Positions 20,096-64,000 of a stretch of DNA of 64,000 nt are shown piece after piece (within the stretch, counting starts at the first letter, position 1; every line of letters begins with the position of its first letter). The stretch lies in assembly GCF_000027125.1 (NCBI RefSeq), contig NC_017626.1, one strand, 5' to 3'. Source of the stretch: Escherichia coli 042 (GTDB taxonomy: Bacteria > Pseudomonadota > Gammaproteobacteria > Enterobacterales > Enterobacteriaceae). A model generated the notes under the pieces. The model searched no databases, was not told where the DNA came from, and saw nothing but the letters and a program-made list of their open reading frames with translations. The position numbers were made by a program, and so were the translations under genes.

Positions 20096-20129
20096 TAAAA
20101 AAAGGCCCCTGTTGAAATTGCAGGGGCCT
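20096..20129 (-). terminator. rho-independent terminator downstream of cutC
   Basis: ggcccctg...caggggcc hairpin flanked by an A run (plus strand). Confidence 0.7.
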
Positions 20130-20175
20130 GGTACGAGCAAGCATCATATTGGGCGACATGATGCAACGGTAAAAA

Positions 20176-20931
<756 letters not shown>

Positions 20932-23451: not shown

Positions 23452-23466
23452 TCGCGTTATACGGCA

Positions 23467-23500
23467 AAAGCCGATGTCATGGCAGACATCGGCTTTTTTA
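23467..23500. terminator. rho-independent terminator between convergent argS and flhE
   Basis: aaaagccgatgtc-atggca-gacatcggctttttt hairpin. Confidence 0.8.
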
Positions 23501-27316: not shown

Positions 27317-27961
27317 TCAAAATCCAAGACTATCCAACAAATCGTCCACCTGATCCTGACTGGCTACCACACCGGCTTTGCTGGTATCGACCTGAGGTCC
27401 ATTAAGCAAACTCTGGTTTTCACGTTTTGGACGCGACTCCTGTTCGGGGATGTTTTCCAACAGCACCATCAGCAACTGACGTTCGATCTCCTGAATGACA
27501 TCCATCATCCGCTTAATGACCTGTCCGGTGAGATCCTGAAAATCCTGCGCCATCATGATTTCCAGCAGCTGCGCGTTAGTAAAGCTGGTATGCGCGGGGA
27601 CATCTGCCAGAAATTGCCGCGTATCTGTTACCAGTTCTCGGGCGTCGGCAAGGTCAATCGGATCGGCAAACCAGTCATCCCAACGTTGGGTTAACGCTTT
27701 TGCTGATTTCTCCATTTGATCCTGATGCGGTTGTGACGCCTCAACACTGTTCAGCGCCCGCTCCGCAGCCTGGGCGGTCATCTGCACAACATAGTACAAA
27801 CGATCGCGCGCATCGGGGATGGCTTCCGCCGCTTCGGCAATGGCCTGATCCAGCCCCAGCTCCCGCAAACTGTCGCGCAGCATACGCGTCAGGCTGCCGA
27901 TGCGCGCAATGATATCGCCAGCTGAATGCTCGTCAGCAGGTTTGATTGATGGTTGCATCAT
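27317..27961 (-). CDS. cheZ: CheY-P phosphatase CheZ
   Basis: 214 aa from [22 protein letters not shown]. Confidence 0.95.
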
Positions 27962-27971
27962 AGTCGCATCC

Positions 27972-29425
<1,454 letters not shown>

Positions 29426-29427
29426 CG

Positions 29428-30288
29428 TTAATCCTTACTTAGCGCATACACCGTCTGACCACGCAGCGTGAAGCGGCGCTCAAGGTGGCTAAAGTTTTCA
29501 GAGTGACCCGCAAACAGCAATCCGTCGGGTTTAAGGAGCGGAACAAAGCGGCGCAAAATCTCCTGCTGGGTAGTTTGATCGAAGTAGATCATGACGTTAC
29601 GACAGAAGATCGCATCAAACGGCCCCGGCACGGTGTACTGTTTCGCCAGTAAATTCAGCGGGGCAAAATCAACATAATTCGCCAATTCCTGACGCACGCG
29701 TACCAGCCCTTCATGCGGTCCCGTCCCTCGCATGAAGTACCGCTGCAGTTGCTGCGGCGTCAGATTTTTCAGCTCTTCATGGCGATAAATACCGCTTCTG
29801 GCTTTTTCCAGCACCTCGGTGTCGATATCACTGGCAAACACTTTCCAGCGTCCGGGCACGGTGCCCAATGTGTCAGCCAGCGTCATCGCAATGCTGTACG
29901 GCTCTTCGCCGGTCGAAGCCGCCGCGCTCCATACGCGATACTCGCCAGAACGACGCCGGGCGTGATCCGCGAGCAGAGGAAAATGATGCGCCTCACGGAA
30001 AAAAGCCGTCAGATTCGTGGTCAGCGAATTGATAAACGCCTGCCACTCACCGCTGTGCTGATTAGATTCCAGCAAGTTCAGGTAATGGCCGAAATCCGTC
30101 AGTCCCAGCGAACGCAAACGACGAACCAGTCGGTTGTAAACCATGTCGCGTTTATGGTCGGCCAGGACGATCCCGGCTCGTTGATAGATCAATTGACTTA
30201 TCCGCCGAAAATGCGCGTCGGAAAGCGCCAGGCGCTCGGTCATCTGTAACAATAAAGACGTTTGCCCACAGGGCAGAGATGAAGTCAT
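29428..30288 (-). CDS. cheR: chemotaxis methyltransferase CheR
   Basis: 286 aa. Confidence 0.96.
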
Positions 30289-30306: not shown

Positions 30307-31908
30307 TCAGGATACCACTGGCGCAATATGTAACTGCGCCGACTCATGTCGTGCTACTTCATGTTCTTCAAGGGTAAATACCGCCACACGCGACGAAAGA
30401 TGGTCAGCCTGGTTCGCCAGTTGTTCCGTTGCCGCCGCCGCTTCTTCTACCAGCGAGGCGTTCTGCTGTGTCACCTGATCCATCTGGCTGACAGCCTGCG
30501 CAACCTGCTCAATCCCCCGCCGTTGTTCTTCCGAGGCCGAAGCAATTTCTCCCATAATGTCGTTCACGCGGGTCACCGAACTGACAATATCAGTCATGGT
30601 CGCGGCGGCGTTATTCACCAGTTTCGAACCCTGCTGGACACGATTGACTGACTCTTCGATCAGCCCTTTGATCTCTTTTGCTGCCTGGGCGCTACGGCTG
30701 GCAAGATTGCGCACTTCACCTGCCACTACCGCAAAACCACGCCCCTGCTCTCCGGCGCGAGCCGCTTCCACTGCCGCATTCAGGGCCAGAATATTGGTCT
30801 GGAAAGCAATGCCGTCGATAACGCTGATAATGTCGCCAATTTTTTGCGAGCTGGTGGCGATCTCCTGCATGGTGTGAGTCATGGTACTGACCTGAACACC
30901 GCCCGCCTGCGCCGTTGTCGCGGCATTTTTTGCCAGTTCCGACGCCTGGCGCGCGTTATCGGCGTTTTGCCCTACCGTGGCGGTTAATTGCTCCATACTG
31001 GCGGCCGTTTGTGCCAGCGATGCCGCCTGCTGTTCGGTACGACTTGAGAGATCGTTATTGCCTGCGACAATCTCCGCGATACCAATGTGCATCTCCTGGC
31101 TTCCCTTACGCACATCACTTACCGTCCCACGCAAAGCCTGCTGCATGGTCTTCAGACTGGCAAAAATGGCGGTGATCTCATTGCGACCATATACCGCAAT
31201 CGGACGCGCCAGATTACCCGCAGCAATGCTGTCAAAATGGCTACCGATAATGGCCAGTGGTTGAACAATCATCTTGCGCGTCCACCACAGCGCACTGCTG
31301 ATGTAGATCGCCGCAACAATAATCATGCTGATAAACACCAGCGCCGAAATCTGATAGTTACGCTGGCTTTGCGCACTGGCAGCTTCCAGCACATGGTTGA
31401 TCTCCTGCTGCCAGGCCTCAAAGTTAACGTCAAACGCATTCTGTGATTCCTGCACCGGCGCAGTGAGGAAATCCGAAAGTTGATTACTTTCAAGCCAGGT
31501 CGCCTGATGTTCGAGATCGTTGTGCCAGCGGGCAAAACTTTTCTCCGTCTCTTTTTGCAACGCCCTGACGTGCTCGTAGCCCGCAGTCATCGCCATAAAA
31601 CTTTTAAACAGCGTGGTGGATTGCGTCAGACTGGCGCGCGCCGTCGTCATCAACGTTTTAATGTCATCCGCCGGATAGCTAAGCGCCGTCAGAGTGCCCG
31701 CTTTGTTCAGCGCGGTACTGGCCTGTAACATTACCGCCCGAGTTTGCGCTAATGCCGCACGTTGCTGATTGCTCTGCTCGACCTGATTCAGTCGTTGCAA
31801 ATCGTCGCGAAATGCCCAAAAAGACATGCCGTTACTGCCAATCTGCAAGATCCCGCAGAGAATCAAAATTAAAAACAGCGTGGTCGAAATTCGAATACGA
31901 TTAAACAT
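30307..31908 (-). CDS. tap: methyl-accepting chemotaxis protein IV (dipeptide/pyrimidine), Tap
   Basis: 533 aa; C-terminal NWETF-less MCP signalling domain; second MCP directly downstream of tar. Confidence 0.93.
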   Translation of the reverse strand: MFNRIRISTTLFLILILCGILQIGSNGMSFWAFRDDLQRLNQVEQSNQQRAALAQTRAVMLQASTALNKAGTLTALSYPADDIKTLMTTARASLTQSTTLFKSFMAMTAGYEHVRALQKETEKSFARWHNDLEHQATWLESNQLSDFLTAPVQESQNAFDVNFEAWQQEINHVLEAASAQSQRNYQISALVFISMIIVAAIYISSALWWTRKMIVQPLAIIGSHFDSIAAGNLARPIAVYGRNEITAIFASLKTMQQALRGTVSDVRKGSQEMHIGIAEIVAGNNDLSSRTEQQAASLAQTAASMEQLTATVGQNADNARQASELAKNAATTAQAGGVQVSTMTHTMQEIATSSQKIGDIISVIDGIAFQTNILALNAAVEAARAGEQGRGFAVVAGEVRNLASRSAQAAKEIKGLIEESVNRVQQGSKLVNNAAATMTDIVSSVTRVNDIMGEIASASEEQRRGIEQVAQAVSQMDQVTQQNASLVEEAAAATEQLANQADHLSSRVAVFTLEEHEVARHESAQLHIAPVVS

Positions 31909-31953: not shown

Positions 31954-33615
31954 TCAAAATGTTTCCCAGTTTGGATCTTGTTCAGTAATTCGCAGTCGTG
32001 GCTGTGCCGGTGGTTGCTCACTGGCAGGACGGGATGGTGTTTGCGGTTTATTGGTGAGTGGGCTGGCTGCCAGACGGAACGCGGAAACCGCTTGCGTTAA
32101 ACGACTCGCCTGTTCTTCCAGCGCAGCTGCGGCGGCAGCTGATTCCTGCACCAGCGATGCGTTCTGTTGCGTGACGCGATCCATTTCCGAAACCGCCAAT
32201 GCGACTTGATCGATGCCACGGCTCTGTTCATCCGATGCCGATGCAATCTCGCCCATAATGTCAGTCACGCGAGTGACAGCATTGACGATATTGTTCATTG
32301 TTTCCCCGGCGCTTTCGACCAGCACCGAACCGGTATCAACGCGCGAGACGGAGTCTTCAATGAGGGCTTTGATCTCTTTTGCCGCCTGGGCGCTGCGACT
32401 GGCAAGATTACGCACTTCGCCCGCCACCACGGCAAAACCACGGCCTTGTTCACCCGCTCGTGCGGCTTCAACAGCGGCATTCAGCGCGAGGATATTAGTC
32501 TGGAAGGCAATACCATCGATAACGCTGATAATGTCGGCAATTTTCTTCGAACTATCGGCGATCTCATGCATCGTTTTCACTACGCCATCCACCACTTTGC
32601 CGCCGTGCTGGGCGGTGTCGGAGGCACTTTGCGCCAGTTGCGAGGCCTGGCGGGCGTTATCGGCGTTTTGCTTCACTGTCGCGGTGAGCTGCTCCATGCT
32701 GGCGGCAGTTTCTTCCAGCGCGGATGCCTGCTGTTCAGTACGGGAGGAAAGATCGGTGTTGCCCGCCGCAATTTCACGGGTACCGGCATAGATGGCATCT
32801 GAACCTTCACGCACATGAGTGACGGTGTCAGTCAATGAGCGTTGCATATGTGAAACGCTCTGCGCCAGGTCGCCCATTTCACTGCGCCCGTCAATGGTCA
32901 GGGTATTCGCCAGGTTACCACCGGCGATTTCGCGAATGTGAGCAATAATTTTTGCCAGCGGCGTAAGCAACATACGGCGAATGCCGTACCACGCCACCAG
33001 CAGAATCAATACCACCACCAGCGCAATAACCGCCAGTTGCCACTGGGCAAATCGGTAATCATCTGCGTTGTCAGTGACGATATCGCGATACAGTTTTTCA
33101 CTGCTGAGGGCGTACTGAGCAAACGCTTCGCCCATTGCATTTTGCATTCCCTGGGTTGGCTGAGCGAAATAAGCTCCAGTATTGCCATAATCAAGATAAT
33201 CAATCAGTTCAGTTAACGCTGTGTGATAGTTTTTATATTTTTCATCAATATTACGACTGGTAGCGACCATTTCAGGTAACGGTGCCATGCTTTTGAATTT
33301 TTTATAATGAGTCGCTGCCTGGGCCAATGTTTTCCTGGCGCTATCGAGCAATTCAACTTTGGCGTTACTTTGTTGATTTGAGGAATCCATCATCATCCGT
33401 ACCGCTGAACGACTCAGGTTAATGCGCGTTTGCAGCATTAAATCCCAGGTTGACGTCAGCTCGCCCTGCTGTTCCCGTAATTGATTGGAAACCACAAAGC
33501 TCTTCTGGCTATGGTGAAGGGAAGAAAAAAACAGACTGCCGGAAATAAGCTGTAACAGTGCGAATACCCCCAGCACCATTACCAACAGCGTGACTACGCG
33601 GATACGGTTAATCAT
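31954..33615 (-). CDS. tar: methyl-accepting chemotaxis protein II (aspartate/maltose), Tar
   Basis: 553 aa from [18 protein letters not shown]; C-terminal NWETF pentapeptide. Confidence 0.95.
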
Positions 33616-33646
33616 AAGGCACCTTCCTGAAAACAAGTTGATCTCG

Positions 33647-33673
33647 TTATCGGCAAGGAGGGGGGAAACTTTA
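33647..33673 (-). promoter_or_regulatory. sigma-28 (FliA) class 3 promoter of the tar-tap-cheRBYZ operon
   Basis: On the minus strand reads TAAAGTTT-N11-GCCGATAA, a perfect match to the sigma-28 consensus, about 30 bp upstream of the tar start. Confidence 0.85.
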
Positions 33674-33759
33674 TTGCTGATGCCACCCGCCGCGAAACTG
33701 AAATAAAAAACCCGATGCGCAGGTCATCGGGTTCATTGCAATTGAGGAAATCAGGAGAA

Positions 33760-34263
33760 TTACGCCACTTCTGACGCCGCGCTATCTAACAGCGCCATCT
33801 CTTCGCTGTTCAGCAGTTTTTCGATGTTCACCAGAATCAACATGCGGTCACCCAGTGCGCCCAGTCCAGTGAGATATTCTGTTGAAAGCGTCACGGCAAA
33901 TTCCGGTGCCGGACGAATTTGCTCCGCCGTCAATGACAGCACATCTGAGACGCCGTCAACCACGATGCCGACCACCCGCTGTCCGAGATTCAGGACGATA
34001 ACTACCGTGTTGTCGTTATAGTCCACATCCACCTGGCTGAACTTAATTCGTAAGTCAACAATCGGCACAATAACACCGCGCAGATTCGTGACGCCTTTGA
34101 TAAACGCTGGCGTGTTCGCAATCCGTGTTACCTGATCATAGCCACGGATCTCCTGCACTTTCAGAATATCAATACCGTACTCTTCATCACCAAGGGTAAA
34201 TACCAGAAATTCCTGGCCTGACGGCTCGCTGGCCAGCTTTGTTACATTCGTCATACCGGTCAT
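33760..34263 (-). CDS. cheW: chemotaxis coupling protein CheW
   Basis: 167 aa, [25 protein letters not shown]. Confidence 0.96.
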
Positions 34264-38188: not shown

Positions 38189-38767
38189 TTAAACAGCCTG
38201 TACTCTCTGTTCATCCAGCAGTTGTGGGATAATATCGGCAGGATTCTGGGAAAGTTTACGTCTTTTTACTGCCCGGGATGGCGGCTGACATAAGCTGCAG
38301 GCAAAGCTGCCAACAGGCTGGTGAGCGTGGGTAATAAAATTGCCGCCGCAGCAGTTGCAGCTGGAAAGTTGCAGTAATCCACTTTCAACAAACCGCACCA
38401 ATGTCCAGGCACGGGTTAATGCCAGCAGCGGTCCGTCTTCTGGTTGCGGGCACTGTTCAAGGTATAAACGGTAGGCTTTGATCACCGCATCGACGCCATT
38501 ACACAAACCGGTTTTCAGTAAAAACTGCCATGCGTTACAGAACATCGAAGCATGAACGTTTTGTTCCCAGGTCATAAACCAGTCGGTTGAGAATGGCAGC
38601 ATGCCTTTCGGCGGTGGGCTTCCGCGCAGTTCTTTATAGAGTTTTATCAGGCGTCCGCGGCTTAACTGTGTTTCGCTTTCCAGCATCTGCAAACGAGCGC
38701 CCAGGGTGATCAATTCCATTGCCAGCTGAATATCCCGCGCTTTCTGAACAATGCTTTTTTCACTCAT
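38189..38767 (-). CDS. flhC: flagellar master regulator subunit FlhC
   Basis: 192 aa, [27 protein letters not shown]; zinc-binding Cys cluster. Confidence 0.97.
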
Positions 38768-39120: not shown

Positions 39121-39900
39121 TATTCCCACCCAGAATAACCAACTTTATTTTTATGCGGTCTCACCGCACCCCGTGATGTCGCCGGGAAGCCCCGGTAAAA
39201 AATAATTAGCATTAGAATAGTTGCGATAAGCTGCAACAGGCAGAGCCCCTTTTTTGGATTTAATAAGTCCTCACAAATAGAAGGGGCTCTTTACACTTAT
39301 CTAAGATTTTTCCTAAATCGACGCAACTGTACTCGTCACTACACGCACATACAACGGAGGGGGGCTGCGATTTTCAATAATGTGTGATGCAGATCACACA
39401 AAACACTCAATTACTTAACATAAATGTATAAGTCATACTTTTGTTTTGGGTGTATTTCAATCTGTTAAAAAGTTTTTCGCAACGCTAGCAAGCAAAAATG
39501 AAACAGGAATAATCGAAATGGGATGTTGCGCACAGTTAAAATAACTCACCGTAAATAATCATCTGCTATAAATAATCACTTTCATGCAATACCAGATAAG
39601 CTATTTTTAAACAGACACTTACCGCACAACAAACTAATTAAATACAAAGAAAGGCAACAATCAACTTAATGTTAATAAAATGTTTTACATATATTAACCA
39701 CTTGTTTAATATGGAGAATCAGTACATTATTTTCTTATAATTACAGTTGAAATCATATGATCACCGAGAGTGATTGATTAATTGTCTTTACTAATAATCA
39801 GACTAATATTTACCTGTTTGACTGAGTTGGGATTGCGTCGTTTCTCCATTAGGAGTAAAGCTTTAATGTCACCTGAAGTTCACAGAATAAGGAACAGGTT
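39121..39900. promoter_or_regulatory. flhDC class 1 control region (divergent from uspC); no IS element present
   Basis: About 780 bp, AT-rich intergenic region with no transposase ORF and no inverted repeats. Confidence 0.7.
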
Positions 39901-40335: not shown

Positions 40336-43688
<3,353 letters not shown>

Positions 43689-51951: not shown

Positions 51952-52038
51952 TGGTACCCGGAGCGGGACTTGAACCCGCACAGCGCGAACGCCGAGGGAT
52001 TTTAAATCCCTTGTGTCTACCGATTCCACCATCCGGGC
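51952..52038 (-). tRNA. leuZ: tRNA-Leu (anticodon UAA)
   Basis: 87-nt type II tRNA; the minus strand reads GCCCGGATGGTGGAATCGGTAGACACAAGGGATTTAAAATCCC...GGGTACCA with encoded CCA. Confidence 0.95.
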
Positions 52039-52050
52039 TCGGGAAGAAAG

Positions 52051-52124
52051 TGGAGGCGCGTTCCGGAGTCGAACCGGACTAGACGGATTTGCAATCCGCT
52101 ACATAACCGCTTTGTTAACGCGCC
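52051..52124 (-). tRNA. cysT: tRNA-Cys (anticodon GCA)
   Basis: 74 nt; the minus strand reads GGCGCGTTAACAAAGCGGTTATGTAGCGGATTGCAAATCCGTCTAGTCCGGTTCGACTCCGGAACGCGCCTCCA. Confidence 0.95.
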
Positions 52125-52178
52125 AAATTCTTCAGGCCTTTCAGCCAGACATCCGCTTGACGCCGATGTCTTTTAAAC

Positions 52179-52254
<76 letters not shown>

Positions 52255-55496: not shown

Positions 55497-55954
55497 AGGA
55501 ATATCTCCAGAAATAGGGATAACGCTACTGATAGTTAGTCATTCGTATATTAGCGGTTTTTATTGCAACTTTGAAACGTTAAAAATGGTGGGTATTCGAT
55601 TTTTCTCTCGTTTTTGTAAATTCGATTGTCCACAGTTATGGTCACGCCCGTCACCAACGGCTTCCGGGATCGTTTCACTGTAAGCCCTGCGATGAAATGT
55701 GACAAAAATTGACTTTATTCAGCAAAAATGAAAATCAGCCCGCTGAATATGTAACATTAATTAACCCGAACAATACGGGCAAAAAACATTCATGATAAAA
55801 ATATTTATTGGTCATTATATTAACGTATTTTATAGCACTGCCGATATCACGCTCAAAAAACAACCACTGCTATTTTTAGCAAAGCTTATGGTATACTCCG
55901 CCGCCTTAACATTTTTCACCGCAAATTTTCATTGCAACATGACGAGGAAAATAA

Positions 55955-61205: not shown

Positions 61206-61925
61206 TTATAACTTACCCAGTTTAGTGCGTAACCGTTTAATGGCCTGGCTGTGTAACTGACTGACCCGCGATTCCCCGACCTCCAGCACCGCGCCAATCT
61301 CTTTGAGATTCAGCTCTTCCTGGTAATAGAGGGTTAATACCAGTTTTTCGCGCTCCGGCAACGTTTCGATAGCTTCCATCACCCGCTGGCGCAGATTACT
61401 GTCCAGCAGCTGTTGTAGCGGGTTTTCTCGCTGATGATCATCAGTAACCAGTTCAATGCTATCGCCGTGCTCTTCGCGCCACTCATCGTAGGAGAAGAGC
61501 TGGCTGTTATTGGTGTCGAGCAACATTTGGCGATAATCGGCAATATCGATCCCTAAACGTTCCGCTACCTCAGTTTCCGTGGCGTTACGGCCAAGTTCCT
61601 GCTCCAGTTGCCCTATTGCCTGTGCCACTTCACGCGCGTTGCGTCGCACGCTGCGCGGCACCCAGTCACGGCTGCGAAGTTCATCCAGCATAGCGCCACG
61701 GATACGCTGCACTGCGTAAGTTGTAAATGCCGTTCCTTGTAGGGCGTCATAGCGTTCGACGGCATTAAGTAACCCAATGCCGCCCGCCTGTAGCAGATCG
61801 TCAAGTTCCACGCTCGCGGGCAGTCGAACCTGCAGGCGCAATGCTTCGTGACGCACCAGCGGGACATAACGCTGCCACAGCGAGTGTTTATCCATTACAC
61901 CTTCAGCGGTATAGAGTGAATTCAC
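61206..61925 (-). CDS. fliA: flagellar sigma factor sigma-28 (FliA)
   Basis: 239 aa; GTG start (VNSLYTAEGVMDKHSLWQRYVPLV). Confidence 0.96.
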   Translation of the reverse strand: MNSLYTAEGVMDKHSLWQRYVPLVRHEALRLQVRLPASVELDDLLQAGGIGLLNAVERYDALQGTAFTTYAVQRIRGAMLDELRSRDWVPRSVRRNAREVAQAIGQLEQELGRNATETEVAERLGIDIADYRQMLLDTNNSQLFSYDEWREEHGDSIELVTDDHQRENPLQQLLDSNLRQRVMEAIETLPEREKLVLTLYYQEELNLKEIGAVLEVGESRVSQLHSQAIKRLRTKLGKL

Positions 61926-61950
61926 GATAAACAGCCCTGCGTTATATGAG

Positions 61951-61958
61951 TTATCGGC
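61951..61958 (-). promoter_or_regulatory. sigma-28-type -10 element (GCCGATAA) upstream of fliA
   Basis: Exact GCCGATAA on the minus strand 26 bp upstream of the fliA start; the -35 element is less clear. Confidence 0.6.
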
Positions 61959-62043
61959 ATGATTATCCGTTTCTGCAGGGTTTTTAATCGGACGATTAGT
62001 GGGTGAAATGAGGGGTTATTTGGGGGTTACCAGTAAATTGCGG

Positions 62044-62244: not shown

Positions 62245-63909
62245 TTAACCCTGCAGCAGAGACAGAACCTGCTGCGGTACCTGGTTGGCTTTTGCCAGCA
62301 CGGAGTTACCGGCCTGCTGAATGATCTGCGCTTTCGACATGTTGGACACTTCGGTCGCATAGTCGGCGTCCTGAATACGGGACTGCGCTTCAGACAGGTT
62401 GGTAGTGGTGTTGTTCAGGTTGGTGACTGCGGAATCCAGACGGTTCTGGATAGCACCCAGGGAAGAACGGAATTTGTCGATAGACGCGATAGCGTCATCC
62501 AATGCTGCCAGCGGGTTGGTAGTAGCTTCAGATTCACTAGTTGTATTAGTCGTTAAGTTACCATTGGCACTTACATAGATAGCTTTACTGGTAGCCGCAT
62601 TTTCACCACTAGTAATAGTGCCATCAGCTTGAGCAAAATACTCGGCAGGAGTTTTGCTCACTTTTCCATCGACTAAATACGCTGATGCAGCAGTGCCATT
62701 ATTGACTGTATATGTCGCAGGTAAAGTTACACCAACAGTTGCAGTGTAAGTCTCATTTTTAACGGCGTTAGCAAACGTTGAAGCATCAACAGAAATATCT
62801 ACCCCATCAAACTTTGTCGTATTAGCAGTAAATGTACCTTTATCTGTTGTAATGACTGTTTTGGCATTAGCATTGTTTGCCATTAAGTCAGACAGTTTAG
62901 CTTGAGTATCAGTGCCTGCGTTAGTTTTACTTAAGTTACCAGTATCATCAAGATAGAGAGCGGCACCGTCATCAGCAGCAGTTAAAGAACCATCTTTAGC
63001 AATAATGACTTTTTGCTCTTGAGCTGTTGTACCGTTGCCAATACTTACTGTTGCAGCAGTGGTACCACCCGCTTCAGGATTCAGGAATGCCGCCAGTTGA
63101 GTCGCATCAACTGAAGCAGAAGCCGTATATGTGTTAGTATCTTTATGATAAGTATATTCCACTGGCGTACCAGGGGCAGCTGCACCAAAACCAACATCTG
63201 CCTCCGTGGAAACTTTACTGCCATCAACACCAGCTACCGCATTCAAAATATCCGTGCTACTTGCGACGGCTTTGTCAGCAATATATCTATTAACTCCAGC
63301 TGTAGTGACCCCCGTATTATCGAGTTTTAAACCAACCATATCTTTAAGTGTTGCAGCAGTATTGGCTGTTTCACCTTCGCCATTCACGTTAAAACCAGCC
63401 AGATTCAGCGTATCAGAGTCAATTTTCTTCAGATCAATCGTGATGGTTTCACCATCATTTGCGCCGACCTGAATTTTCATTGAACCATCTTTGGACAGCA
63501 CGTTCACGCCGTTGAACTGGGTCTGACCGGATACGCGGTCAATTTCGTCCAGACGAGATTTGATTTCGTCCTGGATGGAGTCCAGGTCAGAATCGGAGTT
63601 AGTCCCTGTAGTGGCCTGAACCGTCAGTTCACGAATACGCTGTAAGTTGTTGTTGATTTCGGACAGCGCGCCTTCAGTGGTCTGTGCAACAGAAATACCG
63701 TCATTGGCGTTACGTGCAGCCTGAGTCAGGCCTTTAATATTAGAAGTAAAACGGTTAGCAATCGCCTGACCTGCGGCGTCATCCTTCGCGCTGTTAATAC
63801 GCAAGCCAGAAGACAGACGCTCGATAGAACTCGACAGCGCAGACTGGTTCTTGTTGATATTATTTTGAGTGATCAGCGAGAGGCTGTTGGTATTAATGAC
63901 TTGTGCCAT
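62245..63909 (-). CDS. fliC: flagellin FliC (554 aa; non-K-12 H-antigen central domain)
   Basis: The conserved N-terminus ([54 protein letters not shown]) and C-terminus ([67 protein letters not shown]) flank a Thr/Ala/Asn-rich variable middle region. Confidence 0.95.
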
Positions 63910-63984: not shown

Positions 63985-63993
63985 GTTATCGTC
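63985..63993 (-). promoter_or_regulatory. probable sigma-28 -10 element of the fliC promoter (the -35 would lie beyond the window edge)
   Basis: The minus strand reads GACGATAAC (near-consensus GCCGATAA) about 75 bp upstream of the fliC start. Confidence 0.5.
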
Positions 63994-64000
63994 TGTCGTA

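Follow-up and report, generated by a model that had tools for sequence, protein, structure and literature searches.

Gene content and organization of the region

The window, by which is meant the whole stretch of 64,000 nucleotides of Escherichia coli 042 that was analysed, carries the genes flhDC-motAB-cheAW-tar-tap-cheRBYZ-flhBAE, with fliZ-fliA-fliC lying 28 kb away, and is collinear with positions 1,938,217-2,003,697 of the MG1655 chromosome (NC_000913.3) at about 97.6% identity (about 2.4% different). A few larger differences from MG1655 were seen: the IS1 element upstream of flhDC is absent (about 39419-39426), as are some 770 bp with yecV-yecT (23454-23494), and the central domain of fliC is divergent (62514-63419), fliC specifying 554 aa here (62245-63909) vs 498 aa in K-12, a divergence that implies a different H antigen. 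Rfam models additionally placed the sigma-E-dependent sRNA MicL inside cutC (20097-20404, minus strand, 368 bits) and three tRNAs at 51955-52254 on the minus strand, where K-12 has its leuZ-cysT-glyW cluster.

The junction between cheW and tar lies in the middle of this region, and the genes around it are all read from the minus strand. The coordinates of tar and of the genes that follow it were taken from the list of open reading frames, annotation transfer and collinearity with K-12, and those of cheW from the list of open reading frames and annotation transfer from E. coli N3 and K-12.

33760-34263, minus strand: cheW, which closes the motAB-cheAW operon upstream, with its TAA at 33762-33760
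33734-33699, minus strand: terminator-like hairpin followed by a T-run after cheW, with a 10-pair stem at 33734-33708, found by a terminator scan
31954-33615, minus strand: tar
30307-31908, minus strand: tap
29428-30288, minus strand: cheR
28376-29425, minus strand: cheB
27972-28361, minus strand: cheY
27317-27961, minus strand: cheZ

The hairpin after cheW is terminator-like and can be read as a putative intrinsic terminator that separates the cheW transcript from the DNA upstream of tar, a reading supported better by the pattern scan than by the predicted fold (-16.1 kcal/mol, z = -1.6). Because this folding energy is unremarkable, some read-through from cheW into tar may occur.

Sequence elements upstream of tar

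The minus strand across the promoter region reads ...gcatcagcaaTAAAGTTTcccccctccttGCCGATAAcgagatcaacttgttttcaggaaggtgccttATGattaaccgt..., and the following elements were located in it, from the cheW side to the tar side.

33673-33666, minus strand: -35 element TAAAGTTT, matching the consensus at 8 of 8 positions, the same in K-12 and capitalised as the Ptar -35 in PMC4604602
33665-33655, minus strand: spacer CCCCCCTCCTT, 11 nt and C-rich, in which other E. coli show C>T polymorphism
33654-33647, minus strand: -10 element GCCGATAA, matching the consensus at 8 of 8 positions and corresponding to G-15 C-14 C-13 G-12 A-11 T-10 A-9 A-8 in the cryo-EM numbering
33646-33640, minus strand: discriminator CGAGATC, 7 nt from the -10 to +1, polymorphic among E. 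coli strains
33639, minus strand: +1 (A), at the place published for the K-12 promoter of the same sequence, equivalent to NC_000913.3 position 1,972,715
33639-33616, minus strand: 5' leader of tar, 24 nt, 100% identical to K-12
33628-33622, minus strand: Shine-Dalgarno AGGAAGG in the tar leader, from sequence reading

The tar ATG occupies 33615-33613, leaving a gap of 31 nt to the -10 element. The published sigma-28 consensus is TAAAGTTT-N11-GCCGATAA (Hollands et al. 2010, PMC2859248, Table 1), and the exact match to it that a preliminary description had reported at 33647-33673 on the minus strand was confirmed in every respect, both octamers agreeing at 8/8 positions, with an N11 spacer and with coordinates that needed no correction. 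It is the sole match without mismatches in the 64-kb window, in which four matches with three or fewer mismatches were found vs 0.44 expected from shuffles, while the number of exact 16/16 matches expected by chance from base composition, over 64 kb and both strands, is 2.8e-5. Shifting the spacer to 10 or 12 nt leaves just 4/8 positions of the -35 element in agreement, and a search of both strands between 33300 and 34000 for sigma-70-like promoters (TTGACA-N16-18-TATAAT-like hexamers) returned none.

The transcription start

The published +1 corresponds to an A (33639) that follows the final base of the -10 element by 8 nt and precedes the ATG by 24 nt. Its position was taken from two later papers in which it is stated or implied (PMC4604602; 10.1101/2020.01.02.893370), together with the rule, obtained by dRNA-seq, that at flagellar FliA promoters the distance from the motif centre to the start site is 18-22 bp (10.1101/188474); the distance from +1 to the centre of the 28-mer is 20.5 nt. 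As a calibration, the annotated 5' end of MotR in K-12 follows the motA octamer by 7 nt, compared with 8 nt for tar, and is 19.5 nt from the centre of its site. The preliminary description had placed the start about 25 nt upstream of the tar ATG, which was nearly right, the published +1 giving 24 nt; it had also named a start outside 6-9 nt past the -10 as evidence against the promoter, and the published distance of 8 nt falls within that range, leaving the assignment unrefuted.

Published evidence on the identical K-12 promoter

The tar promoter has been known since the 1980s and is one of those that helped to define the sigma-28 consensus. It is an already known element and a model on which mutational, mechanistic and structural work on FliA has drawn. 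The K-12 promoter, designated tarp or Ptar and read by sigma-28 (FliA, also named RpoF or sigma-F), is the same base for base as the one described here from at least 20 nt 5' of the -35 element through the tar start codon, and gene order and context are likewise the same; the remainder of the K-12 cheW-tar intergenic region differs by four substitutions further upstream, one in the terminator loop. FliA binding, FliA dependence, activity in vitro and the +1 are all taken from the literature on this identical K-12 sequence, and we infer from that identity that the promoter would behave in strain 042 as it does in K-12.

Several lines of published work bear on this sequence. Fitzgerald et al. 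2014 (PMC4183435, Table 2) found by ChIP-seq that FliA binds the 28-mer TAAAGTTTCCCCCCTCCTTGCCGATAAC in vivo and assigned the site to tar-tap-cheRBYZ, with a FAT (fold above threshold) of 57; in the same study the normalised expression of tar was 251 in motile MG1655 and 0 once fliA was deleted. In another report a fliA mutant showed a 13.2-fold decrease in tar, and induction of sigma-F a 2.4-fold increase after 5 min (PMC1935009). Goldman et al. 2015 (PMC4604602) used Ptar as a sigma-28 model promoter, printing it as TAAAGTTTcccccctccttGCCGATAAcgagatcA with the -35, -10 and +1 capitalised, and the transcripts obtained from it were strictly sigma-28-dependent, both in vitro and in cells. The same promoter served as the DNA scaffold of the cryo-EM structure of sigma-28 RNA polymerase, in which the -10 element is numbered C-13 G-12 ATAA N-7 and mutation of -13C or -12G was described as greatly reducing activity (10.1101/2020.01.02.893370). 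The designation of 33647-33673 as the sigma-28 promoter of tar in the preliminary description thus agrees with what has been published for the identical K-12 sequence, which is bound by FliA and FliA-dependent (PMC4183435) as well as sigma-28-dependent (PMC4604602).

An in vitro genomic SELEX list obtained with the RpoF holoenzyme holds no peak at tar, and motA and fliC are missing from it too. The recovery of RegulonDB RpoF promoters by that method was 14 of 144, and the absence of tar is attributed to this low sensitivity.

Weight-matrix scan for FliA sites

The position weight matrix scan that had been proposed as a check was run across the window with a log-odds matrix built from the 52 FliA ChIP-seq motifs of K-12 (Fitzgerald et al. 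2014) minus the five located inside the window, that is from 47 sites. The tar site ranked first in the window with 26.2 bits of a possible 28.9. In 200 first-order Markov simulations of 64 kb each, the highest scores had a mean of 14.9 (sd 1.8) and the largest reached 24.6; the tar score exceeds all 200 of these maxima and is therefore above what chance produces. Second in rank, with 22.4 bits, was the motA promoter inside flhC (38232-38258), which the preliminary description did not contain.

Lower down, motif score loses its power to discriminate. The fliA site scored 16.5 bits and was outscored by sites at 55821-55848 and 8159-8186, both of which lie no more than about 1.4 sd from the mean null maximum. 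The former, TAACGTAT-N11-GCCGATAT on the plus strand (17.4 bits), lies about 107 nt 5' of the yecF start, inside yecU, and was rejected as a new FliA promoter, being identical in K-12 yet without a ChIP-seq site there; it is probably a chance match or a very weak FliA site. The latter, GAAAGTCT-N11-ACCGATAA on the minus strand (17.3 bits), was likewise rejected, being intragenic and having no ChIP site in K-12; it lies within yebB in antisense orientation, roughly 200 nt 5' of the small gene yobI, and carries at the second -35 position an A where K-12 has a G, a change that improves the match. Since a true site such as that of fliA reaches 16.5 bits and the sites of about 17 bits near yecF and in yebB cannot be told from chance, the regulon is not definable by motif score alone.

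Among the 52 in vivo FliA sites of K-12, none but that of tar matches TAAAGTTT-N11-GCCGATAA without a mismatch. Its ChIP-seq enrichment (FAT 57) is lower than that of fliA (91), tsr (94), motA (101) and fliC (110), whose sites have one to five mismatches each, yet FAT values above that of tar. FliA occupancy is therefore not ranked by the match to the consensus, and some other factor must set the occupancy at tar. A weak intragenic site in otsA (41465-41492, plus strand), with the -10 GCCGATAA and a FAT of 2 in K-12, reads GGCGATAA here; the change is a C>G at the critical -14/-13 CC and is in line with reports that intragenic FliA sites are poorly conserved.

Other sigma-28 sites in the window

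Besides tar, the sites and the gene relevant to sigma-28 in the window are the following.

38232-38258, minus strand: promoter of motA (motAB-cheAW, the mocha operon, and MotR), inside flhC, TAAACTTT-N11-GCCGATAT, 22.4 bits, FAT 101, the same in K-12
61950-61977, minus strand: fliA autoregulatory site, with a perfect -10 GCCGATAA (61951-61958) and a poor -35 TGCAGAAA, 16.5 bits, FAT 91 in K-12
61206-61925, minus strand: coding sequence of fliA, with a GTG at 61925, 25 nt 3' of the -10, so that FliA is itself encoded in the window
63986-63993, minus strand: -10 element GACGATAA of the fliC promoter, 76 nt 5' of the fliC ATG (63909), with the -35 beyond the end of the window at 64000

Two of these sites had been mentioned in the preliminary description. 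The weaker -10 said to lie at 61951-61958, upstream of fliA, belongs to a real site that is weak as a promoter overall because of its -35 (TGCAGAAA, 3/8), the -10 octamer itself being perfect. The element upstream of fliC is also real, although the range given for it (63985-63993) was one base too long, GACGATAA occupying 63986-63993; the corresponding K-12 site, TAAAGGTTGTTTTACGACAGACGATAAC, is found in the ChIP-seq table with a FAT of 110 (PMC4183435 Table 2).

The motA promoter is the closest relative of the tar promoter in the window, sharing with it the sigma factor, the 11-nt spacer, the strand and the regulon. It differs in having two mismatches to the consensus (in TAAACTTT and GCCGATAT), whereas tar has none, and in lying inside a coding sequence, where it constrains Ala177-Asp178 of FlhC (10.1101/188474); its ChIP occupancy is nevertheless the higher of the two (FAT 101 vs 57). 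The aer promoter likewise has the layout of two octamers and an 11-nt spacer, and its start was mapped by primer extension to 6 bp 3' of the -10 octamer (PMC2859248). It is off-consensus (TAAAGATA and GCCGACAT) and needs CRP bound at -49.5, in contrast to the perfect match at tar; short Ptar fragments, unlike aer, are transcribed by the purified sigma-28 holoenzyme with no activator added.

Conservation of the promoter

The cheW-tar junction, taken as a 701-bp query, was matched in 5,384 of 5,426 complete E. coli genomes, and a 91-bp query comprising the promoter and leader was present in 5,379 of the same 5,426. Both TAAAGTTT and GCCGATAA were unchanged in 8/8 aligned E. coli alleles, the most divergent of those returned included; two spacer positions showed C>T, the discriminator varied at -6, -4 and -1, and other substitutions lay upstream. 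E. coli strain E1 (NZ_CP195951.1) carries an IS1 in the tar leader right after CAGG (about 33625) and has cheW annotated as a pseudogene; it looks like a lineage in which chemotaxis has been lost.

Beyond the species, an exact-motif scan of species-representative genomes gave at least 120 stretches, which are a sample; chance alone would produce about 130 matches in the whole collection, and many of the matches will therefore be due to chance. Among the matches listed, a flagellar or chemotaxis homologue was found within 3 kb downstream on the same strand in 16 of 120, vs 4 of 120 in a mirror-image control (Fisher p = 0.009), homologues being judged against a small K-12 flagellar and chemotaxis reference set from which flgK/L/M and others were absent. 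A perfect site fills the syntenic slot in Photorhabdus caribbeanensis, Acerihabitans arboris and 'Klebsiella sp. BIGb0407', with cheW on one side and, on the other, a tar/tap-like receptor gene and then cheR and cheB, and the flanking DNA of these three Enterobacterales genera has diverged to a mean column identity of 49%; as these loci were found by the exact motif, the identity of their octamers is given by construction, and their position alone counts as independent evidence. Perfect sites were also seen in Yersinia and Rosenbergiella, where the downstream genes had no match in the small reference set, which lacks flgK/L/M. Several genomes of Melainabacteria/Gastranaerophilales, non-photosynthetic relatives of the cyanobacteria, held two to four perfect TAAAGTTT-N11-GCCGATAA sites each among the matches listed, which suggests that the flagellar sigma factor of this group may share the sigma-28 consensus.

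The C0465 candidate on the opposite strand

The plus strand of the same intergenic region matches the Rfam model RF00116 (C0465) at 33663-33740, scoring 100.3 bits where the gathering threshold is 40. This candidate sRNA was derived from array data; it is separate from the promoter, poorly supported and without a part in the working of the latter. The model corresponds approximately to the reverse complement of the cheW terminator and of the stretch up to the tar -35, and its overlap with the tar promoter is limited to the first 11 nt, which cover the -35 octamer and reach 3 nt into the spacer. Expression of C0465 in MG1655 during early stationary phase has been described (PMC3326304), and cells overexpressing it showed no phenotype in motility, biofilm or fimbriae (PMC4606813). 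C0465 is not among the RefSeq features of the K-12 region, and no sigma-70-like promoter for it was found on the plus strand between 33300 and 34000.

The RF00116 score is a measure of similarity to the K-12 intergenic region only, and C0465 is treated as a putative overlapping annotation that does not stand against the promoter as a rival. That it should be a genuine transcript with its 5' end inside the tar promoter, over the -35 and part of the spacer, is very unlikely; if it were, its initiation and the binding of FliA holoenzyme would be mutually exclusive, which would add an extra layer of control to chemoreceptor expression.

Assignment of the promoter and alternative explanations

Taken with the literature on K-12, the region 33647-33673 is almost certainly tarp (Ptar), the class 3 sigma-28 promoter heading the tar-tap-cheRBYZ ('meche') operon. 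The alternative that comes closest to the data is that tar is transcribed mainly by read-through from the sigma-28 promoter of motAB-cheAW (38232-38258), with 33647-33673 playing a minor role. The two operons are adjacent and on the same strand, the cheW hairpin is not exceptionally stable (z = -1.6), and read-through has been suggested elsewhere, from tar-tap-cheRBYZ into flhB (PMC4183435 supplementary legend); moreover, a fliA deletion would kill both routes, so that expression data alone cannot separate them. What separates them is the distinct FliA ChIP-seq peak at tar (FAT 57), 4.6 kb from the motA peak, and the fact that short Ptar or tarp fragments suffice for sigma-28-dependent transcription both in vitro and in vivo. 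To this can be added the terminator-like hairpin and T-run that stand between cheW and the -35, the octamers that remain invariant while adjacent bases vary, and the position of the site, which is kept in other genera. A predominant contribution of read-through is thus considered very improbable.

There is a vanishingly small probability that the consensus match arose by chance and has no promoter function in this strain. High-scoring sites that are apparently non-functional do occur in the window, as illustrated by 55821-55848 (17.4 bits) and 8159-8186 (17.3 bits), which are absent from the ChIP-seq table; the tar site stands apart from them in its exact match, for which the chance expectation is 2.8e-5, in a score that beats 200/200 null simulations, in lying 31 nt 5' of the ATG of a chemotaxis operon, and in being identical to a sequence shown to be FliA-bound and FliA-dependent. 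Next to no weight is given either to the idea that the intergenic region chiefly encodes C0465 and that its conservation reflects this RNA and not a promoter. The RF00116 score of 100.3 bits and the reported expression in early stationary phase (PMC3326304) would speak for such a reading, but the -10, the discriminator and the leader lie outside C0465 and are equally conserved, while the model is mostly the antisense of the cheW hairpin, with an 11-nt overlap with the promoter. No sigma-70-like promoter was found on the plus strand between 33300 and 34000, overexpression left motility, biofilm and fimbriae without a phenotype (PMC4606813), and the K-12 RefSeq annotation does not include the RNA; even a real RNA would not compete with the assignment of 33647-33673 as the tar promoter.

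Proposed mechanism and significance

At the tar promoter, RNA polymerase containing FliA (sigma-28) would recognise the -35 TAAAGTTT through sigma region 4 and, across the 11-nt spacer, the composite -10 GCCGATAA, made up of an extended -10 'GC' and the core CGATAA, through sigma region 2. Transcription would then begin at the A at 33639 and give a 24-nt leader with a strong Shine-Dalgarno, while the terminator-like hairpin upstream would insulate the promoter from the motAB-cheAW transcript.

The tar promoter serves as a positive control, in that a real regulatory element could be located and interpreted from raw sequence, and it anchors the window as the flhDC-mot-che-tar / fliA-fliC motility region of E. 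coli. The anti-sigma factor FlgM is known to keep FliA inactive until the hook-basal body is finished (PMC4183435), and because FliA is held in this way the promoter couples the production of the chemoreceptors and Che proteins to the completion of the flagellar export apparatus.
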